A stretch of DNA of 32,000 nucleotides, taken from the NCBI RefSeq assembly GCF_900095195.1, contig NZ_LT606950.1, forward strand, positions 1,087,207 to 1,119,206. Direction: 5' to 3'. A program made the position numbers and the translations under genes. The stretch comes from Polynucleobacter necessarius (lineage in GTDB: Bacteria; Pseudomonadota; Gammaproteobacteria; Burkholderiales; Burkholderiaceae). Positions 2,615-22,837 of this stretch are shown here, in pieces. Numbering within the stretch: position 1 is the stretch's first letter; each line of letters opens with the position of its first letter. Under the pieces are notes generated by a model. It was not told the origin of the DNA and did not search any database. It worked only from the letters and a program-made list of their open reading frames with translations.

Positions 2615-3166
2615 TTAAGCTGGCGGATGATCTTCGGGATTGACGTCCAAGGCAATCAAAAAGCGAGACACCATGTTGTAGGCAGCAACTACAGTGACTA
2701 ACTCAACAGTATCGGTATTACCTAAAGTTGCTTGTAATCGCTTCATGAGTGCTGGATCCACTTTGATATTGCGGGTCATTTGATACGACAAATCGGCCGC
2801 ATCATTCTCCACCTGAGAAAACAGGTCTCGCGGAAATTGGCTTTGCCCAATCAATCGCAATGCTTGCACTTGTTCTTCAGTGCCCCCAGCCTTCTTAAAA
2901 AGGGGTGCATGGTGAAAAAACTCGTATTCAGCACCGTTGAGCACAGCTACTACACACATTGCCAACTCTCGCAGTTTGGGATCCAAGGAGAGATTATTGC
3001 GAATCTCTCCGATGAAATGATTCCATCCCTCGGCGATGGGAATGCTGTGTAACAGCATGCGATCGAGGTTAATAAATTGACCGCCACGACGCTGACGAAT
3101 CGCAGCCACCAAATCTGCTGGTTCAGCCAAATCCATCGGCTGATACGGAATTAGACATTCAGACAT
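2615..3166 (-). CDS. carboxymuconolactone decarboxylase (AhpD-like) family protein
   Basis: Uninterrupted 183-aa ORF with a CMD-family look (...ELAMCVVAVLNGAEYEFFHHAPL...). It lies 9 bp downstream of the Bug gene on the same strand. Confidence 0.8.
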   Translation of the reverse strand: MSECLIPYQPMDLAEPADLVAAIRQRRGGQFINLDRMLLHSIPIAEGWNHFIGEIRNNLSLDPKLRELAMCVVAVLNGAEYEFFHHAPLFKKAGGTEEQVQALRLIGQSQFPRDLFSQVENDAADLSYQMTRNIKVDPALMKRLQATLGNTDTVELVTVVAAYNMVSRFLIALDVNPEDHPPA

Positions 3167-5110: not shown

Positions 5111-5721
5111 TTAATCCAATTCGCCGCGAAACAACTGGATCTACTAACGTTATGCTTGCAAGGACCGGATGCTCTTTACTAGGCATGGCTAAAGATGGCA
5201 CCACAGCAATTCCCATTCCGGCCTCAACCAAACCCAGAAGCGTAGTGACATGCTGTGCCTCATAAATGATATTGGGCGCCTGTGACTTTCCAGCTAAAGC
5301 AAGGTCAATCAACATTCGATTGCCCGAGGATTTTGAGACCGACATGAAGTCATATTTACTGACCTCCTGCCAAGTGACCTTTTTCTTCTTACTCAGAACA
5401 TGATCTTTACGATGGAACGCACGCGATGGTGATTTCGCCCATCCGCACCCCACCAACCCCCTCAATTCCTAAGAGCGCCTCATCAAGCCCCTCTAAAAGC
5501 ACCTTCGCCTTTTTTGCAAAACCCATTCCAATAGAGGTGAGCTCCATATTTCGGGTATCGCGATCAATGAGCCTTACCCCCAACGCAGACTCGAGCTTTT
5601 CGATTCGACGGCTGAATGCGGGTTGTGAAATATTGACCGATTCTGCAGCTTTCCTGAAGCTCTTAATTTCAGCAACAGCCAAAAAGGCTTGCAGATCATG
5701 CAAATCAAAGTTAATAGCCAT
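5034..5721 (-). pseudogene. LysR family transcriptional regulator with internal deletion and frame change
   Basis: An N-terminal HTH (LHDLQAFLAVAEIKSFRKAAESVNISQPAFSRRIEKLE) is in fragment 5407-5721. The C-terminal effector domain (...YEAQHVTTLLGLVEAGMGIAVVP...) is in fragment 5034-5465. The frames differ and the total is only about 228 codons, against about 300 typical for the family. Confidence 0.8.
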
Positions 5722-5736
5722 AGTATTTATTTGTTA

Positions 5737-5766
5737 ATTGCATTAATACTTAATAATATTGCATTA
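5737..5766. promoter_or_regulatory. candidate operator in the LysR/Bug divergent intergenic region
   Basis: The 9-mer ATTGCATTA occurs at 5737-5745 and 5758-5766, with starts 21 bp apart. It sits between the LysR start (5721, minus) and the Bug start (5833, plus). The first copy lies within TTAATTGCATTAA, a T-N11-A-like element. Confidence 0.3.
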
Positions 5767-5832
5767 TACAAAATGAAATAAAAGCGCAAAAATCGCAGCA
5801 AGTATCAAAATTAAACTTTCTGGAGACAATTC

Positions 5833-6630
5833 ATGAGATCCAAACTCAAAACTGCATTGCTTTGCGTACTTTGTGTGCCAGCATTTTTAGTCACTACAAC
5901 GCTTGCTCAAAACTACCCTAGCAAAACAATTACGATCGTCGTGCCAACGGCACCAGGCGGCGCAAATGACGCTATGGCCAGAATCCTTGCCCAAGGACCA
6001 AGTCAAAAAATGGGGCAGCCTGTCATTGTCGACAATAAGCCCGTCGCCAATGGCGCAATCGCTACTGAGTTTGTAGCAAGAGCAGCCCCTGATGGCTACA
6101 CCATCCTTTTTGGTTACATAGCAACTCATGGAATTAATCCTGCGCTGCAAAAGTTGAAATATGACCCCATCGCAGATTTTGGGCCAATTGGTATTGGTTG
6201 CAAATTCTCCAACGCTGTTAGTGGCTACAAACAGTTTGCCCGTGAACAACGCTAAAGAATTGGTAGCGCTACTAAAAGCAAAACCCGACAGTATCAGCTA
6301 TGCATCCGCAGGAAAAGGCACTGCGCCACATCTAGCAGCAGAACTATTTCAGATAAATACCGGTACACATATGTTGCACGTTTGGTAATACGGTTGATCG
6401 TTTATCGCCTGCAATCCCAAGAGCCTTTAGTTTCCCGCCAGTAACTTGAGGGTAGGCACTGAATAAACTTGGGAACATTACTTAGGTAGTGCCCCCAATG
6501 GTATCGACGATGGCTGGTGCGGATCCCCTATACGGGACGTGCCAACCCTTAAAGAACAAGGCATTCCAAATATGAATGCACACAGTGATATGCATTATTT
6601 GCGCCTGCAAAAACGCCTAAACCTATCGTT
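5833..6630 (+). pseudogene. Bug family (TctC-like) substrate-binding protein: frameshifted, internally inverted, 3'-truncated
   Basis: Signal peptide plus ...ITIVVPTAPGGANDAMAR...APDGYTILFGY (5833-), then a frame change near 6190. ...ISYASAGKGTAPHLAAELF...HMLHV runs to 6381. The next 53 codons are on the opposite strand (6382-6536). It resumes at (V)PTLKEQGIPNMNA, changes frame, and FAPAKTPKPIV ends near 6630. Confidence 0.85.
6382..6536 (-). other. 155-bp in-place inverted segment of the Bug pseudogene
   Basis: The reverse complement reads (V)PYRGSAPAIVDTIGGTT*VMFPSLFSAYPQVTGGKLKALGIAGDKRSTVLP(N). This is the part of the Bug protein expected between ...HMLHV and VPTLKEQ. It is flanked by GCACGT (6376-6381) and ACGTGC (6537-6542). 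Confidence 0.85.
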
Positions 6631-7252
6631 TGGATCGTCCATTGGGGCTGCTCATGACTCCATTCCCACGCGGTTGAGTCAAGGGCAAACATTCGATGTG
6701 TTTGTCTTGGCAGGCTCCGCACTAGATACTTTTATTCAGGCCGGCAAAATCAAAAATGGCACTCGGGTAGACCTAGTTTCATCCCAGATTGCAGCAGCAG
6801 TTCGAGAGGGTGATCCGGTCTCAGATCTCGACTCCCTGGATTCATTTAAAGAATCGTTGCTTACCCATGGAAGAATTGCGTATTCAGCCAGTGCCAGTGG
6901 AACCTATCTTTCTACCGAGCTCTTTCCTAAATTGGGTATTTCTGAAGAGATGTCTGTAAAAGCGCAGAAAATTTTTAGCGAAAGGGTTGGAACCATCCTG
7001 ATGCGCAATGAAGCCGACCCTGGATTCCAGCAAATGAGCGAGCTGTTGCCAATTAAAGGTATCAAGATCATCGAAGATCTTCCCCCGGAGGCCCAGAGAT
7101 CATTTTTCTTTTCAGCAGGCAATGGAAGCGATACAAAGAATGAGGAGCGTGCGCGACATCTCATTGAGATTCTGGCATCCCCTGCGGTTGCAGATAACAT
7201 TCGCCAGACTGGCTTAAAACCAGTCCTCGCAAAAGCGCCCTGGCTAAGCTAA
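6631..7252 (+). pseudogene. ModA-like periplasmic substrate-binding protein (PBP2 fold), 5'-truncated remnant
   Basis: ...FDVFVLAGSALDTFIQAGKI..TRVDLVSSQIAAAVREGDP...IAYSASASGTYLSTELFPKLGI...GFQQMSELLPIKGIKIIEDLPPEAQ...FSAG...LASPAVADNIRQTGLKP. The signal peptide and about the first 50 residues are missing. The fragment is fused directly to the Bug remnant. Confidence 0.6.
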
Positions 7253-7268
7253 ATACGCTTGCCTGCCG

Positions 7269-7292
7269 AATATCTTGTGCGCACAAGATATT
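7269..7292. repeat. perfect 24-bp palindrome in an intergenic region
   Basis: AATATCTTGTGC|GCACAAGATATT lies 17 bp after the ModA-like stop and about 80 bp before the next Bug start. No T-tract follows. Confidence 0.95.
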
Positions 7293-7372
7293 GAATGGAG
7301 CTTAGATCCCAAGCATTAGATTGCAGTTTCAAATATGATTAAGGATCATCAACCATGATTCCTATTTGAAAC

Positions 7373-8348
7373 ATGCCAGCCCAAAAAAACCTTCTCAAGC
7401 ATGGAATTGCTGCGCTACTCTGCCTCATCGCAACCACATTGAGTGCTCAAAGCTATCCCACGCAACTCATTAAAATTGTTGTGGGATTCTCTCCTGGCGA
7501 AGTTCCAGATATCGCAGCAAGAATAATTGGCCAGCATATGAGTGAAAACTGGAAGCAGCCAGTCGTAGTAGAAAATAAACTTGGTGCTGGGAGCAATATC
7601 GCTGCTTAGCTTGTTGCTAACGCACCTTCGGATGGCTACACCCTTCTCTCCATTTCTTCAGATTTTGCAATTTCACCGGCCATTTATCCCTCGTTAGCAT
7701 TTGATCCATTAAAAGACTTTTCAGGAATTACCTTAACAGCTACTGGACCTGCGCTAGTCCTGATATCTCCTAACTTAAAAATCAACAACGTAAAAGAGTT
7801 GGTCGAATATGCCGTCAAAAATCCAGGCAAAGTGACTTACAGTTCAGCGGGTGTTGGAAGCGGCTCTCACTTTGCAGCAGAGCTAATACAAGCCAAGACC
7901 GGTGCCGAGTTATTGCACATTCCCACAAAGAGAATTCCCGATGGAATCACCGAAGCAATGTCTGGAAGAGTTGATTTTTTTATCAGCCCCTATGCCAGCG
8001 CCATCAATTTGGTGAAGTCCGGAAAGGTTCGAGCGATTGCGATCACCAGTACCAAACGGTTTAAAGATTTACCCAACCTACCAACCGTATCAGAATTAGG
8101 TATTCCTGGCTATAAATGAGAATTCTGGTATGGCTTGGTTGCGCCCGCCAAAACACCAAAATCCATCCTTCAAAAAAATTGCTTCTGAGGTCAAGCACAT
8201 TCTTGAACTACCCTCGGTTAAGGAACGTTTTGATGAATTAGGTACAACCGCAGTTTCAAGCACACCCGATCAATTTGACAAATTGATAGCCACCGGAGTC
8301 ATCGAGTTCTCGCGATTAGCAAAATTGTCAGGCATTAAATCTGAGTAA
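7373..8348 (+). pseudogene. Bug family (TctC-like) substrate-binding protein with two in-frame stops and a frameshift
   Basis: The signal peptide and most of the protein (to GIPGYK) are in one frame, interrupted by TAG at 7607-7609 and TGA at 8117-8119. The frame changes in the A7 run at 8172-8178 (...TPKSILQK / KIASEVKHILELP...). Confidence 0.85.
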
Positions 8349-9155
8349 TGATGGGTAGCGTGCATAAAATCGTCACTAGGCACGGCAATCAAATTGCTTT
8401 TACGATTGAAGGGATGGTCCCTGGCTCACGCTATCGCATTCTCTTGCCAGCAATATGGGCATGTGGAAGCCACAACTTCCACTACTGACAAAACAATTTA
8501 AGGTCTTACGGTTTGATACGCGCGGACATGGTCAAAGTTCAGCACCACCAGACCACTACACCTTAAATGATCTCGCCCAGGACGCATATGATCTTTTTCA
8601 GGAGTTGAAAATAGAGCGCACACATTGGTTGGGGCTCTCCATGAGCGGAATGATCGGGCAGACTTTAATTTTGAAACACCCCCATCTATTCGCCTCCCTT
8701 GTTCTAGCGGATACTACCAACAAACGCCCTGAAAATGCTCAGCAAATGTGGGGGGAAAGAATTGCTCAAGCAAAGGCTGGAGGAATGTTATCCATGATTG
8801 ATAGCACTCTTGCACAGTGGTTTAGCGATGATTTTCGCAAAGAGAATCCAACAATCTTCAAGAAATTTCGGAAGGTATTGCTAACACCCCTTTAAATGGC
8901 TTTTGTGGTTGCTGCGAGGCTATTTCACAGATCGATACATTAAATCGCCCCTCTGAAATTGTTTGTCCTACATTAATCTTGGTTGGAGAGTGCGATCATG
9001 GTACTCCGCCACAGATGTCACGAGCAATGAAAGAAAAAATGACCAATGCTCAGTTGCATGAAATCCCGAATGCAGGTCACATTTCTAATATAGAACAACC
9101 AGAGGTATTTCATCGCTATTTATTGAATTTTTATAGACAAAACAACTTTTTATAA
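8348..9155 (+). pseudogene. alpha/beta hydrolase (3-oxoadipate enol-lactonase-like), frameshifted
   Basis: Three frames join to give MMGSVHKIVTRHGNQIAFTIEG / GPWLTLSHSLASNMGMWKPQLPLL...RFDTRGHGQS...WLGLSMSGMIGQ / ...IANTPLNGF...CPTLILVGECDHGTPP...IPNAGHISNIEQPEVF. Frame changes lie near 8410 and 8870. Confidence 0.8.
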
Positions 9156-9209
9156 ACGAGTAAAATCATTCTGCGGTCAAAAATGCAGATTAATAATAGG
9201 AAATGAGAT

Positions 9210-9520
9210 ATGTCTACTTATACTGTTAAATGGTCGCGGAGTTTTTTATGTGGTTTGCTAAAAGTGGTAATTGGTCTCTGTATTTACAACAGCGCCACTG
9301 CCCAAACATCCTGCTCATACCCAGCTAAACCAATTAAATTAATAGCCCCTGTTGCTGCAGGGGGGGTCTGGATAATATAGCCCGGACCTTAGCCGAAAGG
9401 ATGTCGAAGTCACTAGGTCAATCCATTATTGTTGAAAATATTGGCGGTGGCTCAATTGCTTCGCAAGCGGTAGCAAAAGCCGCGCCTGATGGTTACACAT
9501 TACTGGTTGCCTATGTTGGG
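9210..9520 (+). pseudogene. Bug family substrate-binding protein, N-terminal fragment (left part of a gene split by inversion)
   Basis: MSTYTVKW...signal...YPAKPIKLIAPVAAGG, then a frame change in the G7 run at 9360-9366, then LDNIARTLAERMSKSLGQSIIVENIGGG...APDGYTLLVAYVG. Homology stops abruptly near 9520. Confidence 0.75.
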
Positions 9521-10453
9521 TGGACTCGCAGCTCGATACGTTCAACGTCTTCAGCCTTAACACCTTGAGCGCGCAATTGTGCGCAAGCGTCGATAGCAGG
9601 GTGAATGACAATTCCGCAGGCAAATGGCTTGTAGGTGTTTAGTGAAATTTCAAAAGACTGCCCTAGATTTCGATCAATTTCAGACCAGTCGTTTTTGGTA
9701 GACACGGTTTGCATGTAACCACGCCCAGCTTCGAGTGCTTTCGAGCTCGCAGTAAAACCATGTTTTGCCAGCAAGGCTGAGAGTTGACCGGCTCGAGCAG
9801 CGCCACCAGGGTGAAACGGCTTGGTCATGATGCCAAATTGTTCGCGCATACCTACTGGTTGTGATGCAGCAATACCTAACGCCATCAGCGTCTTCCGGGG
9901 GTCTAGCTCATCAAGCGCGAGCAAGCAGCTGCAGACCACAGCATGCCAGTTGAACCGGTAATGTGCCATCCTCGGTGATAGTGATCGGGGTACATCGCAT
10001 TACCAACATGGCAGGCTACATCAATACCTAACACTAAAGAGTCAATCAGTTGACGACCATTTGCATGGATATGCTCGCCTAGTGCCAGAATTGCAGATGC
10101 AACGGGGCCTGCTGGATGAATAACGGTTTTTAAATGGGTATCGTCGAAGTCAAAAGTGTGGGAGCTAATACCATTGATCAGAGCCGCTCCACCCATATCA
10201 ACCTTGTCTTTTCTTCCTAAAATGGTGGCTTGGGTCGCTGGTTGAAATTCCCGAATAGCGGCAAGCGAAGACTCAACACTTTCATGATTGGCTGCGCCAA
10301 TAGCACACCAAGCCAATTGAGAAACGTGCGATGTGCTTCATGCTCTACCTCGGGAGTCCATCCTTGGCTTGGATGAGTGGCGACAAAATCGGCCAACAAT
10401 TTGGTAACCGGTGGGGCATTTAGATCAGCCGCCGCTGCTATTGCATTAGACAT
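9511..10453 (-). pseudogene. MmgE/PrpD family protein, N-terminal ~314 codons (inverted part), frameshifted
   Basis: SD GGAG precedes the ATG at 10453. Fragments 10217-10453, 9903-10316 and 9511-9969 join as ...HRTFLNWLG/CAIGAANHES...SHTFDFDDTHL..IHPAGPV...GWHITGSTGML/...ALGIAASQ..GMREQFG.MTKPFHPG.AAR...ERIELRVHP. Frame changes lie near 10310 and 9940. Confidence 0.85.
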
Positions 10454-10482
10454 TCAAGCTCCGTTCACAGATAAGTTTTTTA

Positions 10483-10776
10483 TTAATGATGTTGTTCTGA
10501 ATTAGTCATTTCAATATTTCTATCTTTAGCAATTTTTGCCCAGCGAGCAATATCCTCCTTAATGTAATTACCGAATTGCTGCGGAGTCATTGGCATTAAT
10601 GTCATTGCTTCGCTGGTCATCTTCTCAGAAAATTCTGGGGTAGCTAGCGCTTTATTCAATTCAACATTTAATTTATTGACGATTGGCTCTGGTAGATTGG
10701 CGGGCCCAACAATGCCATACCATTGCTGACCCTCAAAGCCGTTATAACCAAGCTCTTTAAAAGTAGGAATGTTTGG
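10483..10776 (-). pseudogene. Bug family substrate-binding protein, C-terminal fragment (inverted part)
   Basis: The minus strand reads (L)PNIPTFKELGYNGFEGQQWYGIVGPANLPEPIVNKLNVELNKALATPEFSEKMTSEAMTLMPMTPQQFGNYIKEDIARWAKIAKDRNIEM...* with its stop at 10483-10485. No N-terminal part lies upstream on this strand. Confidence 0.75.
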
Positions 10777-11116
10777 TCAAGCTGGCGAAAGCGAATACAC
10801 AGATGAGATCGTCAATCGTCCCGATGTTGTGGCATTACGAGCCAAGGTGAATGCCACAACAGATACTTCAATCAGCGAAGCCTCGGTCGATGTACGAGTT
10901 TCTCTTAAGAACGGCAAAGAAGTTCATGTATTTGTTAAAAATGCCATTGGCTCCCTAGAGAATCCAATGCGCGATGAAAATCTTGAACATAAGTTCGCAA
11001 GCCTAACTGAGCCAATCATCGGTAAAGAAAAAACACGCCAACTACTTTCCGCCTTATGGAAACTGGGACAAGCAAACGATCTGAAGCAAATTATTGCGTT
11101 GTCTACTCCTGACTAA
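10769..11116 (+). pseudogene. MmgE/PrpD family protein, C-terminal 115 codons (non-inverted part)
   Basis: (M)FGQAGESEYTDEIVNRPDVVALRAKVNATTD...SLENPMRDENLEHKF... looks like the C-terminal domain of the PrpD family. It is on the opposite strand to the N-terminal part. Confidence 0.8.
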
Positions 11117-11135
11117 TATTGAAAGGTTTTCAGTA

Positions 11136-12112
11136 ATGTCCTCTTTACAAAACATTGTTACTCTCGGAGACTATGAACGCGCCTTAAGACGATTTTCCAA
11201 TTGGGATGTGTTGGATAAAAAATCAAATATCACAATTCATCATGAGCCGTTACGCGATGAAGCCCTGTACGAGGCAGCAAAAGATGCAGATGCTATAGCA
11301 ATAATACGAGATCGATCTCCATTCAATGAGGCCATGATTGCTCGTCTTCCAAAACTCAAATTTTTAATGTTTACTGGGGGCGTAATGGCACGCCGGACGC
11401 TGGCGCACTAATAAAGCGAAATATTCCCATTGCATGTACGCCAGGGGGACCTTCAAAAGAAACGACCGCGGAACTGACGCTGACTCTGATATTGGCATCT
11501 GCAAAGCGCTTGGTAGAGCAAAATGCTTTAATGGCAGAAGGTGGATGGCGGGATCAGCTCTCTGTATTGCCAATGCTTTCTGGCGAACGCCTCGGTATTA
11601 TGGGTCTTGGAGCGATTGGTAGTCGCGTCGCACGTGTTGGATTGGCCTTTGGCATGGAAGTTGTTGCTTGGAGCCCACGCATGACGCCCGAACGCGCAGC
11701 TGCTGAAAATGTAAAGGCAGTGAGCCTTGATGAACTCCTGTCAACTTCTAAAATCATCTCAATGCATCTCGTTGCAGGACCAGGAACCAAAGGATTAATT
11801 AGTGCAGATCAAATGTCACGGATGCGTCCCGACTCAATCCTTGTCAATACATCTAGATCCGCTTTAATCAATATGCAAGATTTACAAGCAGCTCTTGCCT
11901 TGGGTTGCCCAAATCAAGCCGCGATTGATGTATTCGATATAGAACCATTGCCAACACAAGATGCTCTTCGGAAAATGCCAAACCTTTTAGCAACACCACA
12001 CCTTGGTTTCATTGCTGAGCCTATATTTAAAATCTTTTCAGAGGGCATTACTAAAACCCTATCTGCATGGTTAGACAATCAGCCAGTCTCCCATCCATTC
12101 AAACCGACATAA
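11136..12112 (+). pseudogene. D-isomer-specific 2-hydroxyacid dehydrogenase, single frameshift
   Basis: MSSLQNIVTLGD...KLKFLMFTGG changes frame to RNGT.DAGALIKRNIPIACTPGGPSKETTAELTLTLILA...GIMGLGAIGSRVA...PHLGF. The shift is in the G5 run at 11376-11380; a G6 run would read TGGRNG in frame. Confidence 0.85.
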
Positions 12113-12119
12113 TCATTTT

Positions 12120-12659
12120 TTGAAAAAACTCACCCCACTTCAACTCTTTATTTGCTTTAGCAAGATAGGTCTCTCTGGATTTGGCGGAGTTCTACCTTGG
12201 GCTCGCAGAGGTTTAGTCGAGAAAGATAAACTACTTACATCCGAGGAATTCAGCGCCATCCTTGGTGTGTGTCAAATAATGCCTGGGCCCAATGTGATTA
12301 ATATCGGGGTTTGTGTTGGGTCGCGCTTTTGTGATGCAAAAGGTGCTATTGCTGCTGTAGCAGGCTTAACCACTGGCCCGATTTTTATTGTTATTTTATT
12401 GGCAATTTTGTATGACCACTACGGATACCTTGACTATATCCAAGGAGCCCTCAAAGGAATTGCTGCAGTAGGTGTTGGCCTGATTGCTAGTACCGGATTC
12501 AAAATGCTTCGAGATGAGTTTCGTTACCCGCCAATGTTTTTTGTAATCGGCATCACGTTAATTGCCGGCATTTATTTTGACTTAGCACTAGGTTTGGTAG
12601 CGCTCTTAGTTGCCCCCTTTGCCTACTATTTTGCTAGAAGAAAAGCGCGCAAGTTATGA
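12120..12659 (+). CDS. chrA: chromate transporter (CHR family, short form), first half-protein; start codon uncertain (TTG)
   Basis: The 179-aa ORF reads ...FSKIGLSGFGGVLPWARRGLVEKDKLLTSEEF...CQIMPGPNVINI. No ATG or clear SD is present. Its stop overlaps the next ATG as ATGA at 12656-12659. Confidence 0.7.
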   Translation: MKKLTPLQLFICFSKIGLSGFGGVLPWARRGLVEKDKLLTSEEFSAILGVCQIMPGPNVINIGVCVGSRFCDAKGAIAAVAGLTTGPIFIVILLAILYDHYGYLDYIQGALKGIAAVGVGLIASTGFKMLRDEFRYPPMFFVIGITLIAGIYFDLALGLVALLVAPFAYYFARRKARKL

Positions 12660-13107
12660 CGCTATTACTTAGCCTATTCATCAAGCTTTCACTATTTTCA
12701 TCGTCGCGTTTGGCGGAATTATTGCAGTTCTGCCATCCCTTCTTGATCTCGCCGTAAATCAAGAACACTGGATTGATTCAGCCACTTTCGCAGATTATTT
12801 TGCTATTGCGCAAGCTGCACCAGGACCCAATTTCATGACAGTCACTCTAGTCGGCTGGCATGTTTATGGGTTAGCAGGAGCCATTCTAGCCTCCATCGCA
12901 ATATGCTGGCCTCCCTCAGTGAGGGTTTTATTTCTTGAGCGCTACATCACGAAAATTCAAGACCACGAGAAGAAAAAAATTATTCAATACGCAGCTGCGG
13001 CTCTAGCTATTGGCTTAGTGCTTACCTCATCCTGGAAGCTTACTGTTGGTTTTAATGATCATTGGACTGCAATTGTATTAACAATTTTTGTCGCAGTCGT
13101 TACGTAA
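12656..13107 (+). pseudogene. chrA: chromate transporter (CHR family) second half-protein, frameshifted near its 5' end
   Basis: ATG at 12656 gives MTLLLSLFIK. The frame then changes near 12686 to FTIFIVAFGGIIAVLPSLLDLAV...AIAQAAPGPNFMTVTLVGW... Confidence 0.7.
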
Positions 13108-13135
13108 TTTTCCAAGATACACCCGCTCTACCTGA

Positions 13136-13152
13136 TAGCGCTCGGAGCGCTA
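13136..13152. terminator. possible hairpin between convergent chrA and tctA remnants
   Basis: TAGCGC-TCGGA-GCGCTA, a 6-bp stem with a 5-nt loop. There is no flanking T-tract, so support is weak. Confidence 0.25.
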
Positions 13153-13172
13153 ATCAGAGGCGCAGGCTTAAT

Positions 13173-14660
13173 CTAAACAGCTGCTTTGCGAGATCTCACT
13201 AGGCGTAAAACATTTGGGATAACCAGCAAAGCAATTGCAATCACCATCAATGTGCCCGATATTGGTCGCGTAAAAAATGTGGACCAATTTCCCTGACTGA
13301 TCGTTAGGGCTTGTCGCATAGACTGCTCTGCCATTGGACCCAAGATTAACCCGATAATCATCGGCGCAGCGGGAAAATCAAAACGTCGCATGCCAAAGAA
13401 ATCCGAAGAAAAATAAAAGTCCAACATCGAATACAGAATTAGGGGATCCGTAAACCCCAGCTACTGAGATCACAACGATGCCAGCATAGAGCCATTGAGG
13501 AGGTATCTTTAATAACTTTACCCAAAGTCCAACTAGCGGCAAATTAAGAACCAACAAAATGATATTGCCGATATATAAACTAGCAATCAAAGTCCAAACC
13601 GCTTTGCTGTGCAAACAGTGTAGGACCAACCTGAATACCATAGGATTCAAAGGCGGATAGGATAATCGCTGCTGTTGCCGATGTGGGAATACCCAAAGCC
13701 AGCAAAGGCATAGGCACTCCTACCGCGGAAGCATTGTTAGCCGCCTCAGGACCTGCGACTCTCTCTATGGCACCCTTACCAAACTCTTCTGGCTTTTTGG
13801 ATAATTTCTTTCCCGTAAAGTACGAGAGCAATGTGGGTAACTCTGCGCCGCCAGCAGGCATTGCACCAATCGGAAAGCCTAATAAACCTCCCCGAATCAT
13901 GCTTTCCAGGGTCTGGAAAAATCTTCTTTAGACAGCCACAGGCTGTCCGATACTGCAAGCATCTCTGATTTCTTATTTTCCTTGCCTTGCAAGCTAGATA
14001 TAAGGCCTCACCAATTGCAAAAAGCCCCACCGCAACAATTGTTACCTCAATACCATCCAAAAATTCAGGTTGGCCAAATGTAAAACGGGGCTGTCCAGTT
14101 TGCAAATCAATGGCGATGAGTCCAAATAATAAACCTTGCTACTAATCTGATGAGACCTCGCAGAGCAGAACTTCCTAAAACGGCAGATACTGTAACCAAA
14201 GCAGAATCATGAGACTGAAATACTCTGCAGGCCCGAAAGCGAGTGCTGCATCAACTACCCAGGGAGCGAAAAACGTCAAAGCGATCGTGCCAATTGTTCC
14301 GGCTACAAAACGTCCAATTGCAGCCGTTGCTAGCGCAGACCCTGCCCTACCGCGACGTGCCATCTTATTTCCTTCAAGCGAAGTCACAATCGTTGCTGAT
14401 TCACCCGGTGTATTTAAAAGAATAGAAGTCGTTGAGCCACCATACATTGCGCCGTAATAAATTCCGGCAAATAAAACAAAATAGCGGTTGCAGGAACCTT
14501 AAATGTTAATGGAAGCAATAATGCAATCGTCAGCGCCGGTCCAATGCCCGGCAATACGCCCACTAAGGTACCAACCAAGCAACCTAAGAACCCATAACAT
14601 TAAGGTCATAGGTTCCAAAGCAACAGCAAACCCCTGCATGAGGGAGTCAAATGAGCTCAT
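13173..14660 (-). pseudogene. tctA: tripartite tricarboxylate transporter large permease TctA, heavily fragmented
   Basis: The start reads [22 protein letters not shown] (ATG at 14660). The continuation [26 protein letters not shown], then ...[16 protein letters not shown]..., and the fragments 13776-14105, 13580-13900, 13378-13650 and 13173-13427 all lie in shifting frames. I count at least six frame changes. Confidence 0.85.
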
Positions 14661-15136
14661 AACTGTCTTTGCTTCAAAACTAAAACTGATTAATCGCCCC
14701 AAATCCACACCAAGGAGCACTGAGAATAAAGTCCAAAAAGCACCTGCGATACCCAGCACCATCAACATAGTTTTGATATTGAGCTTTGCATCAAAAGCCA
14801 TTGATACACCCAAACCACACAATGTCGCGGGCATTAAAAAACCAATTACTTTTGCGAGAAAGATAAAAACAAATCCACCACCAAAAGATATATCACGCGC
14901 ATTGAACCGCCTGGAAGTGGCCGCCCCTCTTCCTCATGTACACAGTCAGGCGCTTTATTCGTAATAGCGCTCAACAAATAAAAAACGCCTAATAAGGAAA
15001 GGAGTGCAACCAAAATTGACGGGGCTAATACTGGCCCTACCTCGGAGTACATCGTAGACTCAGGAATGCTAAGAACTTGCCAAATTGCCACGCCACAAAA
15101 CACCAGTAGAAAACTGGCCACCAGACGTGTACTCAT
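14661..15136 (-). pseudogene. tctB: tripartite tricarboxylate transporter small permease TctB, frameshifted; 3' end unclear
   Basis: MSTRLVASFLLVFCGVAIWQVLSIPES... (14846-15136) continues in another frame as ...FLMPATLCGLGVSMAFDAKLNIKTMLMVLGIAGAFWTLF.... That frame runs without a stop into the tctA start. The ATG overlaps the tctC stop as ATGA at 15133-15136. Confidence 0.6.
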
Positions 15137-16204: not shown

Positions 16205-16618
16205 TTTAGCGTAACGACTGAAAAGTCCAAATACCGAGGACTCGGAGCGCTTCTACGCGCATTTTTCAATAGCCAGTCTGCCAACGTAGTTTCGATTATT
16301 CCTTTGGGCACGTTACTTTCAAATATGGTGGGCGGGTTATCTCATCGGTATCGCACTGGCTTTTTTTGGGGCAATCCAAATCTCTCACCGGAATGGAAAT
16401 TGTTTGTCATTACAGGATTTTTAGGTGGCTTAACCACGTTTTCAAGTTTTTCCGCAGAAGTCGTCTCATTCGTCCAGCGTGGAGAGTTAGGGTGGGCTAT
16501 TGGAACGGCGCTACTCCATTTGGAGGGATCTGTTGTTCTTACCATGCTCGGCCAAAGAAAATTGCAAGAATGGAACCCCACATTAACTTTGCCTCCTTTA
16601 TTGAATAGTAAAGCCTAG
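16205..16618 (+). pseudogene. crcB: fluoride channel CrcB with missing N-terminus/start and an internal out-of-frame patch
   Basis: ...RGLGALLR...IPLGTLLSNMVGG...PEWKLFVITGFLGGLTTFSSFSAEVV...GWA resembles CrcB. The frame opens only after TGA at 16202-16204, and no start codon precedes the first transmembrane segment. At 16338-16370 the frame reads SHRYRTGFF where the +1 frame reads the expected LIGIALAFF. Confidence 0.7.
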
Positions 16619-17379
16619 CATGCTAATTGAGCCCATCTCAATGCCATCTACGAAAACATTTGCAACCTCGCCCTCTTGTCTTAACGCCATTGCGTATAGA
16701 GCTGGCCAATAGTGCTCAGCAGTTGATATGGATAAATGGGCAGCTTCACCGTAACTACCATAATCAATCAGCGCATCGTATGCATTAGATTAAAGATTGT
16801 TAGCAAAGTAATTATTGGAGTCGACCGCCCACGGGTAAGGTGTGGAATCATCTCGCCAGTCAATAAGACGTAAATTGTGCATCACATTACCACTGGCGAG
16901 AATCAATATATTCTCATCACGCAAGGGCCTTAATTGTTTTGCAAGCTCGAAATGTTCTCTCGCTGTCTTTGGGCTGTCGAGACTTAATTGCACAACAGGC
17001 ACATCCGCATTGGGATAAAGGTATTTCAGAATTGACCATGCGCCATGATCAATACCCCATTCATTCTCCTCAAGAACAACCGGTACACCGAGTAACTCTT
17101 GAATACGATCCGCTAGCGCGGGACTTCCCGGCGCAGGGTATTGAATATCAAACAAAGCTTGAGGGAAGCCACCAAAGTCATGAATTGTTTTGGGGTTCGT
17201 CATCGCAGTAACCCAAGTCCCACGAGTCACCCAATGCGCAGAAATCGCCAAAATAGCATCAGGTCGCTGAAGTGATTCTCCAAGAGGGCTCCACAAGCCG
17301 CAGTAAAACAGTTGGGCTCTATGGCATACATCGGACTGCCATGGCCAGCAAATATTGCAGGTTGGCGATGGCGAGCCAT
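16598..17379 (-). pseudogene. ygiD: 4,5-DOPA dioxygenase extradiol (class III extradiol dioxygenase, YgiD-like), frameshift plus in-frame stop
   Basis: ATG at 17379 gives MARHRQPAIFAGHGSPMYAIEPN. The frame changes near 17300 to ...PDAILAISAHW...IHDFGGFP...YPAPG...GIDHGAWS...LASGNVMHNL.... An in-frame TAA lies at 16790-16792. The same frame then continues SNAYDALIDYGSYGEAAHLSISTAEHYWPALYAM...SISMLGFTIQ* and ends at 16598. Confidence 0.8.
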
Positions 17380-19696: not shown

Positions 19697-20898
19697 ATGA
19701 ATCCAGGAAAAGCATTTAGAACCCTACCAATCTACCGCATCGGAGCGACCTTAAGCTATCAAATTACGATGGTGGCGGTTGGGTGGCATATTTACGAGAT
19801 TACCAATAGCGTCATATCGCTTGGCTTGATTGGCCTCGAGGAACTTGTGCCCTACTTCGCTCTAGCTCTTTATGCTGGTCATGCGGTCAATCACCATTCA
19901 CGTAAATTGATTTCTGCCATTGCAGCAATCATTCATTTTCTTGTCGCACTTTTTCTTTGCGCCATTGCCCAAAACTGGCTATCACCTCCAGTGCCGTTGA
20001 TTTACATCGCTATAGGATTCATCGGCATCGCGAGAGCACTACTTCGACCCTCATACCAAGCATTATTTGGACAAATCATCCCGCGCGACCAACTAAGCAA
20101 ATACATGGCTTATGGAAACGTCTCCTTTCAAATCTGTGTAGTAGCGGGTCCCGGATTAGGGGGTTGATGATTGGTTTCACAGGCTTAACCGCTACTTATG
20201 GATTGGCTGCGCTCTGCGGATTAATGAGTCTGTACGGCGTATCGTTCATTCAGGCGAAATCAGAAAAATCCAAACCCGCAGAAAACCTTTTGAAAAGCTT
20301 TAAACAGGGGTTTGATTACGTTCGCAAACATGACCTAATTCTGAGCACGATGGCTTTAGATATGTTTGCCGTGCTATTTGGTGGTGCCGTCTCAATACTC
20401 CCTGCATTTGTGAGCGACGTTCTGCATGCCGGCCCCGAGACACTTGGTATTTTGAGGGCTGCTCCAGCGGCAGGATCGGTACTCATGGGCGTCTATCTTG
20501 CAAAACAGCCTATATTGCACAACTCCGGGAAATATTTGCTTCTATCGGTGGCAGGCTTTGGTCTCTCAATAATCTGTTTTGGACTTTCAACACAATTGTG
20601 GATTTGTGCTTTCTTTCTTCTGCTTTCAGGGTGCTTTAATTCCGTCTCTGTAGTAATTCTAAGCAGTATCGTTCAATTAACAACACCCGATAACATGCGT
20701 GGAAGAATAAGCGCTATTAATGGAATATTCATCGGGCCATCGAATGAATTAGGCGCTCTAGAGTCAGGTATTGCAGCCAGTCTTTTGGGTTTAGTCCCAT
20801 CCATTATTTTTGGATGAGCTGCAACCTTACTGATTGTATTGATCACGTATAGGCTTGCGCCAAATTTATATCGATTTCTTATCCGCGATATCACTTAA
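19697..20898 (+). pseudogene. MFS transporter, frameshift plus premature stop
   Basis: Fragment 19697-20167 (...VVAGPGLGG) and fragment 19957-20817 (LMIGFTGL...) join at the G5 run at 20159-20163. An in-frame TGA lies at 20815-20817 (IIFG*AATLLIV..., probably from TGG). The frame continues to TAA at 20896-20898. Confidence 0.8.
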
Positions 20899-21828
20899 TC
20901 TCAGGCAAATCCTTTTGAATGATTTTCAGGCCCTCACGTAAGGCAGTTTGATAGCGCTCACGCTCTGCTTTCATGGATTCCGAAGTCCAAGAATAAAACC
21001 CTTCGCCTGTTTTCATGCCAAACTTGCCGCTTTCAACCCGACTGCTGAGACACTTTGCAATCGTTGGTGAATTATTTAATGCGGGATAAATCGTAGCCCC
21101 TCCAGCAGCATGAACTTCAAGACCAGCGTGATCGTGCTGCATTGCGGGGCCAGCGGCTATGTAACGAAATCCAAAACCAAACCGTACAGCCTTATCAATA
21201 TCCTCTGGGGTACAAATTCCTGCGTCAACCATCGCAAACGCTTCACGAGACAATGCATGTTGCAAACGATTTGCCAAGACCCTGGCAAATCTTTTTTTAC
21301 AGTGACTGGAACCCATGCCACACAAGGTCATAAAACGAGACAAACTCTCTGCAACCATACGGGATGTCTTTTCACCGTACACCACCTCAACACAGGGAAC
21401 TAAATGTGCCGGCATAAAAAATGTAACCCAATCATCCGAGCAGCAGTTTTTAAATCGCCGGCGATTTGACTAATCGGAAAGCTAGTGCTGTTACTAGCTA
21501 GAACTGCTTCGGATTTTGCGTATTGCTCTAGTTTGGCAAATAACTCTTGTTTCATATCCAAGCGCTCTGGTACACATTCAATGACCAGATCGATGTCCGC
21601 CCAATCCACCTCCTCCAAAGAGCCCGCTATCGAGAGTAAATGGATACGGCGTTGTATCCCAATTCCGTCATTGGTGTTCGTAAAGTAATCCGGCAATAGC
21701 GCACGACGTTCTGTGGTGGGCTCCACTACCTGCACCGCACAACCGCCACGAGCGCAGACGGCAGCAACATCAGCGCCCATCGTGCCGCCACCAACCACCA
21801 CCTTGGTTTGAGCTGGGGTAAACAACAT
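20891..21828 (-). pseudogene. 3-hydroxyacyl-CoA (3-hydroxybutyryl-CoA-like) dehydrogenase, frameshifted
   Basis: SD AGGAGA precedes the ATG at 21828. The N-terminus is MLFTPAQTKVVVGGGTMGADVA (Rossmann fold)...MIGLHF. The frame changes in the A6 run at 21416-21421 to FMPAHLVPCVEVV.GEKTS.... A further out-of-frame patch lies at about 21278-21313. Confidence 0.85.
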
Positions 21829-21909
21829 GATTTTTCTCCTAAAAGGTAGGACTTTTTTCAAAATCCCCATATAATGGGGCCATTATTCCAATAAAAATCT
21901 GAGACAAAC

Positions 21910-22837
21910 ATGATTCCCGTCAATTCGGTGTTACAGGTCGGTTTTTTCCTGAGATTATGCAGGCGGAAATTAATCGTCGCCTAACACCGGTTCGTCAACC
22001 AGATGCGAGCGCCCCACCACCATCTGGGAATTTTGAAGCAATTTTGGTGCGCTCCATACAGCCCTTCCTGAAGCGCTCGTCAAACAGATCCCCAGTATTC
22101 GCATGGTATCGACTTGTGGTGTTGGTTATGACAACCTGCCCCTGAGCTATCTCAAACAACATGGAATCAAAGCAAGCAATACCCCTGGCGTTCTAAATGA
22201 CGCAGTGTGTGAATTAGCCATCGGCATGATGCTGAGCCTATTACGACACATTCCCGAATCGCAAGAACATGTTAAATCTGGCGCTTGGTCTAAAGGCGTA
22301 TTCCCACTCACCACCACATTGGCAGGCAAAAGAATAGGCATTGTCGGCATGGGTCGCATTGGCCAGGACTTAGCAAGTCGTTTGGAACCATTTAAGGTTG
22401 AGATTGCCTATACAGGACCGAGCCCAAAGCCAGTGCCATACACCTATTACCCACAAATACTGGATCTAGCCAAAGCGTGCGATGTCATGTTCATAGCTTG
22501 CCCAGCGAGTCTGCAAACCGATCGTTTAATCAATGCCAAGGTGCTAGATGCCCTGGGAAAATCGGCGTATTTAATCAATATTGCACGCGGCAGTGTTATT
22601 GATGAAGGAGCACTTTTAGGTGCACTGCAACATAAAGTAATAGCCGGTGCTGCGTTAGATGTCTTTAACAACGAACCTAATCTCAACCCCGCATTTTTAG
22701 ATCTTGATAATATCTTACTGACACCCCACATTGGAAGTGCTACCTTAGAAACACGGATAGCCATGACAAACTTAGCTATAGATAATTTAGAGGCATTCTT
22801 TAAAAAACAACCACTTCCCTCAGAAGTGCATTATTAA
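21910..22837 (+). pseudogene. 2-hydroxyacid dehydrogenase (glyoxylate/hydroxypyruvate reductase-like), frameshifted
   Basis: MIPVNSVLQVGFF / PEIMQAEINRRL...FEAILVRS / HTALPEALVKQIPSIRMVSTCGVGYDNL...GIVGMGRIGQ...NIARGSVIDE...LTPHIGSAT lie in three frames. Changes lie near 21950 and 22050. Confidence 0.8.

Follow-up and report, generated by a model that had tools for sequence, protein, structure and literature searches.

An exact 155-bp micro-inversion in a decayed Bug/TctC gene of Polynucleobacter necessarius and its sibling events

In the genome of Polynucleobacter necessarius, a genome-reduced obligate endosymbiont of Euplotes (PMC11253213), the middle of a gene for a Bug protein, the substrate-binding protein of a tripartite tricarboxylate transporter (TctC), reads on the opposite strand. 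The 155-bp segment lies within a stretch of 32,000 nucleotides that we analysed as a whole (contig NZ_LT606950.1, positions 1,087,207 to 1,119,206; hereafter the window), and is bounded by two hexamers that are complementary to each other. The locus raises the question of whether such a segment is a switch or a scar, and whether the short inverted repeat at its edges caused the event or was written by it. According to our analysis, the flip is without function and belongs to a recurrent structural decay of the genome rather than to a functional switch, and it is best read as a neutral, unprogrammed micro-inversion.

The inverted segment of the Bug/TctC gene

The remnant of the Bug gene occupies positions 5833..6631 of the plus strand, as delimited by its match to PF03401 (TctC), by a codon alignment to intact 324-aa orthologs (L167-L169) and by a blastn gap against the relative L001 (6794 to 7101). 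Its inverted block of 155 bp spans 6382..6536 and belongs to the minus strand, where its reverse complement joins the Bug frame, the Pfam match and the ortholog alignments. As had been claimed in the original prediction, the block is enclosed by GCACGT (6376..6381, His-Val codons CAC GT.) and ACGTGC (6537..6542, Asn-Val-Pro codons AAC GTG CC), both of which are present in the sequence. The translations of the open reading frames (ORFs) also confirm the break that had been described for the plus frame: the ORF at 6161-6388 terminates with ...NTGTHMLHVW*, and the same frame picks up at 6539 with VPTLKEQGIPNMNA. The minus-strand translation of 6382-6536 is PYRGSAPAIVDTIGGTT*VMFPSLFSAYPQVTGGKLKALGIAGDKRSTVLP, and when the block is flipped back a single continuous frame is obtained, ...HMLHVPYRGSAPAIVDTIGGTT*VMFPSLFSAYPQVTGGKLKALGIAGDKRSTVLPNVPTLKEQG.... 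The stop within it is an in-frame TAA at 6482-6484 of the block's minus strand, where the orthologs carry CAA or CAG.

The flipped sequence matches the PF03401 profile continuously from position 2 to 219 (206.6 bits, with a cut-off of 27), whereas the unflipped sequence matches positions 2-140 only (133.1 bits). The 52 amino acids encoded by the minus strand of the block are sufficient on their own to match profile positions 137-188 (E=5e-10), and the predicted similarity of this translation to Bug proteins is thereby borne out.

In order to place the event, we compared the Bug locus with 19 orthologs, consisting of 8 syntenic Polynucleobacter genomes or metagenome-assembled genomes from a scan of species-representative genomes, 7 contigs from a metagenome scan, and 4 contigs found via best protein matches. 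The gene is collinear, that is un-inverted, in all of them (19/19). The window aligns to its relatives in forward orientation up to ~6382, in reverse over 6378-6542 (E values of 1e-25 to 1e-41; for example, L002 6707 to 6543), and forward again from ~6539, with the reverse-strand segment pairs sitting precisely within the syntenic gap of the Bug locus. Once the block is flipped, a MAFFT alignment to 15 orthologs crosses both junctions with zero gaps, as the proposed restoration of the frame from the reverse complement requires. Identity of the block to the relatives is 0.74-0.83 and equals the divergence of the flanks; the syntenic Bug orthologs are 81-90% identical in protein, and the best intact orthologs are 73-76% identical in DNA. 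What stands at positions 6382-6536 is the middle of the Bug/TctC gene in exact reverse complement, with no base gained or lost. The un-inverted state of all 19 orthologs, the order of the Pfam profile and the gap-free flip show that the inversion is derived and base-perfect, and as far as visible it is private to this lineage. No second assembly of the strain was found by exact-protein look-ups in gene-indexed assemblies, for which three window ORFs and one 100%-identical NCBI protein were used, and no locus of this lineage was found in the scans of GTDB representatives and JGI metagenomes.

Besides the inversion, the Bug gene has at least five lesions; it is a pseudogene and is dead in either orientation. 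Apart from the TAA within the block, it carries an additional T at 6194/6195, a loss of one nucleotide near ~6579, a change from TGG to TGA at 6586-6588, and a ~300-bp deletion at ~6627-6631 that takes away the C-terminus and links what is left of the gene to SBP_bac_11. With its frameshifts, two stops, truncation and inversion, the gene has no intact reading frame. Fragmented ORFs are numerous across the locus. The intact Bug paralog nearby is 100% identical to an NCBI protein of P. necessarius, and its STIR1 ortholog is only 85% identical. A chimeric ORF of 237 aa (6539-7252) consists of the Bug remnant and the truncated SBP_bac_11 gene (PF13531) and is at risk of being miscalled as a real gene.

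Sibling inversions and the origin of the flanking repeats

Via a protein of 99% identity we located a sister strain, of which three mutually identical contigs (L160, L161 and L162) come from separate datasets: two SRA runs assembled by Logan (SRR32119647 and SRR8208349) and one assembly of ENA (ERZ27248707). Over 13,157 aligned bases, its sequence and the window have 170 mismatches (98.7% identity). The sister is missing window positions 5687-14732 (at L160 ~8286-8293), which begin between LysR and Bug and run into what is left of tctA/tctB, and it can therefore neither date nor confirm the Bug inversion. This loss of ~9 kb is a single large deletion, which took several pseudogenes including the inverted Bug gene. 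Two further in-place inversions distinguish the sister from the window, one in crcB and one in a LigB-type dioxygenase gene. For their polarisation we used four outgroup contigs that are ~90-93% identical over crcB and its flanks and contain intact crcB and TctC, with LigB in L164; SRR34704489 is an example of this outgroup lineage. The comparison with close relatives covers the window up to 24.7 kb.

The crcB micro-inversion (16234..16551, plus strand) is derived in the window and consists of 308 bp (16239-16546) between CCGAG (16234-16238) and CTCGG (16547-16551). Of this fluoride-channel gene the middle part is flipped, and the N-terminus and the C-terminal tail are still found on the minus strand. 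The gene is collinear in the sister and in the four outgroups and flipped in the window only; all CrcB homologues among the matches listed (120/120) are 125 aa long and collinear with the order of the sister. In crcB sense, the ancestral junctions read TTTGGC·GCC·GGACTC...CATGC·TCG·GTATTT and those of the window TTTGGC·CGAGCATG...GAGTCC·TCG·GTATTT. The three bases GCC were lost, and TCG was kept and duplicated inversely as CGA. With an ambiguity of one base per junction, the overwritten tract measures 3-5 nt, and however the junctions are read, as many bases were lost as were duplicated. The arms were complementary in register at 2/5 positions before the event and are so at 5/5 (CCGAG/CTCGG) after it.

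The LigB-type dioxygenase pseudogene (16694..17088, minus strand) is in the ancestral state in the window, with the arms GTATA (16694-16698) and TACAC (17084-17088). The block between them (16699-17083, 385 bp) is flipped in the sister only (L160 6110-6356), identically in L160, L161 and L162, and a separate deletion of 147 bp lies within the sister's block (window 16785-16931 absent). Written as GTGTA...TATAC, the ancestral arms, common to the window and three outgroups, are 4/5 complementary, and the derived arms GTGTA...TACAC of the sister are 5/5 complementary. The overwritten tract is 1-5 nt, length is conserved, and each junction has 2 nt of microhomology. The sister's crcB is decaying too (reverse complement of L160, 14187-14510): an internal stop interrupts it, it has small indels, and GGA has changed to CGA at the junction site. 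The LigB-type gene of the window is interrupted by a TAA in frame at ~16790. By the time of their inversion, both genes had thus probably become dispensable.

In crcB and LigB, the few bases of one breakpoint were overwritten by the complement of those at the other. The gain in complementarity in both genes shows that the perfect repeat now flanking their inverted blocks was made, at least in part, by the event and was not simply its substrate. Length is conserved exactly in all three resolved events (Bug, crcB and LigB), and the overwritten tract of the Bug event is at most 6 nt. The block lengths of 155, 308 and 385 bp all roughly reach or exceed the persistence length of DNA or the footprint of one gyrase, and none falls into the <50-bp range typical of template-switch inversions, in a sample of three events that is too small for interpretation.

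For the Bug hexamers, the picture is consistent with that of the siblings. A random 155-bp block in the window has a perfect flanking inverted repeat of at least 6 bp with P=1.75e-3 (0.175% of trials), and the repeat is therefore a genuine signature of the event. The perfect pair is found in 0/19 of the un-inverted orthologs: 15 of them scored 2-5/6 complementary, and 4 were imperfect by inspection. In the relatives the left hexamer reads GCAYGT, in some TCATGT or CCATGT, and the right one A[T/C][G/A]T[N]C. The Bug hexamers would thus fit the pattern of the sibling events, without proving it. The original prediction had placed the event at a very short inverted repeat; this repeat is present, but its perfect form is confined to the inverted copy, and the repeats of the sibling events were created by the event. 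If a one-base bulge is allowed (6371-6381 against 6537-6548), the Bug arms lengthen to GTT-GCACGT / ACGTGCCAAC (reverse complement GTTGGCACGT), with all 9 left-arm bases matched and 9/10 alignment positions matching. This could be due to chance (~3%, a hand estimate) or to a longer arm that pre-existed in the lineage.

Template switching as a proposed mechanism, and its rivals

The Bug event was probably a homology-independent, length-conserving exchange at two junctions, of the class of pure micro-inversions flanked by short inverted repeats. We tentatively regard replication template switching as the most likely mechanism of the Bug event. It is the conventional explanation for micro-inversions (PMC5453318, PMC8755829), and a four-point template-switch model forms part of one of these works (PMC5453318). 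In an intermolecular switch, the nascent strand would quit its template at one short arm, copy the opposite strand back across the spacer and the other arm, and then return in register. The spacer would thereby become inverted, and one arm would be replaced by the exact complement of the other, resulting in a perfect short inverted repeat. Template switching has been described at quasi-palindromes, or short non-identical inverted repeats (PMC8604942; Ripley 1982 cited there), where it predicts spacer inversion together with an imperfect repeat becoming perfect, as seen in LigB and crcB. This footprint, with arms perfect in the derived genome only, is found in LigB (4/5 to 5/5) and crcB (2/5 to 5/5), and the Bug arms compare as 6/6 with 2-5/6 in the relatives. 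If the 6-mer pre-existed, annealing of the nascent 3' end at both switches is plausible for Bug. The enzymology is our inference, as is a mechanism common to the Bug event and its siblings.

Several observations weigh against template switching as we have outlined it. The ancestral crcB junctions share a microhomology of only 1 nt each, so that annealing would be poor and the return in register a coincidence. In yeast, documented spacer inversions by template switching involve spacers of 2-5 bp and arms of at least 10 bp (PMC8604942), whereas the spacers here are 155-385 bp, or 30-100 times longer, with arms of 5-6 nt and, in crcB, essentially no prior arm; the blocks likewise exceed the 17-33 nt of primate inversions. 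About 2,900 hexamer inverted-repeat pairs at a spacing of 100-400 nt exist in this window alone, and the repeat therefore does not explain the choice of site. The closest Bug outgroups are only 73-76% identical, and the orientation of the block rests on a single deposited assembly of the strain.

A serious rival, although an unlikely one on balance, is subunit or interface exchange by a type IIA topoisomerase (gyrase or topoisomerase IV) after staggered breaks, as in the Ikeda model. Type IIA topoisomerases cut with a stagger of 4 nt. Two cleavage complexes 155 bp apart would exchange partners and religate the segment inverted, the non-complementary 4-nt overhangs would form a heteroduplex at each junction, and after replication both junctions of each daughter would be occupied by the 4 nt of one site, which form a perfect inverted repeat, with those of the other site lost. 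Zero net length change and independence of prior homology are thus predicted, and both agree with the exact length conservation in 3/3 events and with crcB, which had no pre-existing repeat and 1 nt of microhomology per junction. The crcB junctions could be reproduced by hand as the predicted one-strand product. A 4-nt tract lies within the allowed range of all three events (crcB 3-5, LigB 1-5, Bug at most 6), both variable positions of the right Bug hexamer fit into one 4-nt window, the derived flanking repeats are all at least 4 nt (6, 5 and 5), and a block of at least 155 bp suits two adjacent gyrase complexes. Gyrase shows rapid DNA-induced interface swapping, and "micro-deletions or -inversions" have explicitly been raised in this context (PMC11164529). 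Set against this, crcB alone is discriminating among the three events, and a tract of 3 or 5 nt fits it as well as one of 4; the joining of mismatched overhangs is not established in vivo; and the consensus of gyrase sites is too weak to be of use with three sites. Double-strand-break repair is a more distant option, which we consider improbable. It would act either on a break within the segment, by microhomology-mediated break-induced replication (MMBIR) primed at the flanking inverted repeats as in the model of PMC8755829, or by two breaks with flipped rejoining. Such repair has been put forward for micro-inversions of primates whose flanking repeats are very short or imperfect (PMC8755829). 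The many deletions in the region do indicate frequent breakage or mis-repair, yet the exact length conservation in all three events is not expected of end joining, MMBIR requires an inverted-repeat microhomology that crcB did not have, and a blunt flip-and-ligate leaves three crcB junction bases unexplained.

The 155-bp segment might be mis-oriented in the deposited genome by an assembly or amplification artefact; there is one assembly of the strain, and the sister has lost the region. DNA amplification of unculturable symbionts can yield inverted chimeras, but these give single junctions in a minority of reads, whereas both junctions here are exact and reciprocal and the 6-bp repeat is far below the k-mer or overlap length of assemblers. 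The like event in the sister's LigB gene is moreover identical in three assemblies from separate datasets, and we hold an artefact to be very improbable. A programmed invertible segment, that is, a site-specific recombinase switch or shufflon toggling the Bug gene, shares the anatomy of an in-place inversion between inverted repeats and is nevertheless effectively excluded. The arms are 6 bp long, short of the more than about 10 bp expected of specific recombination sites, the Bug gene is dead in both orientations, with one stop lying within the block itself, only a single orientation occurs in 19/19 orthologs, and the sibling events affect unrelated genes with unrelated flanks. No recombinase was recognised by eye among the ORFs within several kb (LysR, TctC, SBP_bac_11, hydrolase and PrpD-like), the neighbours in the window not having been scanned systematically, and none is contained in the Pfam table of the sister strain's locus.

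Three other routes were considered for the inversions and set aside. Reciprocal recombination between pre-existing inverted repeats is rejected as a general mechanism by the prior complementarity of 2/5 in crcB, and a blunt cut, flip and ligation is rejected for crcB, where three junction bases would differ. Serine recombinases cut with a stagger of 2 nt and tyrosine recombinases with one of 6-8 nt; the action of either at pseudo-sites is disfavoured by the overwritten tract of 3-5 nt in crcB. Of the two options given in the original prediction, a template switch accordingly fits the repeat as a product, while intramolecular inversion by reciprocal exchange at pre-existing repeats finds no support as a general mechanism.

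Known systems, meaning and the surrounding region

The Bug flip belongs to a known class, the pure micro-inversions abutted by short inverted repeats. In primates (human-chimpanzee), such inversions of 17-33 nt abut inverted repeats of 3-75 nt, and their mechanism is debated (PMC8755829). They share with the events described here the exact reverse complement, the abutting short perfect or near-perfect inverted repeats and the lack of a functional role. Unlike them, our events occurred in pseudogenes of a bacterial endosymbiont, with blocks of 155-385 bp (5-20 times longer) and a further block of ~1.3 kb, and their density per substitution is far higher (2 per 170). In Escherichia coli, RecA-independent inversions between pre-existing repeats of 12-23 bp were reportedly described by Schofield, Agbunag and Miller in 1992 (Genetics) as very rare and recovered by selection. 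These are likewise bacterial, located within a gene and independent of a site-specific recombinase, whereas the arms in our case are 5-6 nt long and perfect only after the event. Small inversions of plastid genomes are said (Kelchner and Wendel, 1996) to have hairpin stems of ~10-25 bp with short loops and to flip back and forth. They too are recurrent, in place and bounded by inverted repeats within a reduced genome of endosymbiotic origin; the very short arms, the long blocks and the absence of any sign of reversibility set our events apart. The Hin/Gin/Cin, FimBE and shufflon systems also invert a segment in place between inverted repeats, but depend on a recombinase of their own, on specific sites of greater length and on two functional states; nothing of this kind was recognised at the Bug block.

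To our knowledge, no natural micro-inversion has been attributed to gyrase interface swapping. The events reported here have in common with it a homology-independent, conservative breakage and reunion (PMC11164529), and their footprint is compatible with 4 nt without proving it. That the micro-inversions of this lineage are natural footprints of gyrase interface swapping, with a 4-nt heteroduplex segregating into a new repeat of at least 4 bp, appears rather doubtful to us. In this reading, they would arise at an unusually high rate (~1 per 85 substitutions locally) and be preserved neutrally in a pseudogene-rich genome; the lineage may also have lost functions that normally resolve trapped cleavage complexes. 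If this holds, this genome, its sister and the free-living outgroups would form a natural mutation-accumulation series, from which the long-debated question of how micro-inversions arise could be settled and the Ikeda model be supported in vivo.

Taken alone, the Bug flip adds another lesion to a gene that is already dead, in the decaying genome of an endosymbiont. Its value comes from the recurrence together with the polarised junctions, whose ancestral state is kept base for base in close outgroups. They show directly that a short inverted repeat beside an inversion can be written by the event rather than being required for it. Caution is therefore called for where comparative work concludes from the derived sequence only that a rearrangement was "inverted-repeat-mediated". 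A clade-wide comparison of genomes could separate template switching, break repair and topoisomerase exchange, a question that is open (PMC8755829, PMC11164529). For annotation, it follows that pseudogene fragments on opposite strands may belong to one gene.

The larger inversion that had been noted at 9.5-10.8 kb is confirmed by the relatives: a block of ~1.3 kb (9518..10785, minus strand) aligns in reverse to every relative covering it. The block holds the C-terminal part of another Bug gene and the N-terminal ~2/3 of an MmgE/PrpD-like gene, a family assignment made by eye on the translated ORFs. At the right junction of the block (10769-10785), the window matches the relatives on either strand, in an imperfect inverted repeat of ~17 nt (10/17 in L001), and ~0.5 kb is absent at its left junction (L001 10388-10788 and 12065-12153). 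The simplest reading would be an inversion that was later followed by one deletion across the left junction. The suggested recurrence is thus confirmed, and more strongly than had been foreseen, the crcB event of the window and the LigB event of the sister adding to the two that were previously noticed. Four inversions of 0.15-1.3 kb lie in or beside the 32-kb window, two of them per 170 substitutions between the sister strains, and the local density of micro-inversions is unusual.

Deletions also separate the two strains. Besides the ~9-kb segment, the sister lacks four stretches of 0.35-1.0 kb that the window has (882-1446, 2709-3056, 20243-20769 and 21403-22392). In the opposite direction, ~207 bp of a LysR-family regulator gene are gone from the window at ~5411; this gene is intact in the sister (285 aa) and split into two ORFs here. 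Large indels between the window and the sister are far more numerous than their divergence of 1.3% suggests.

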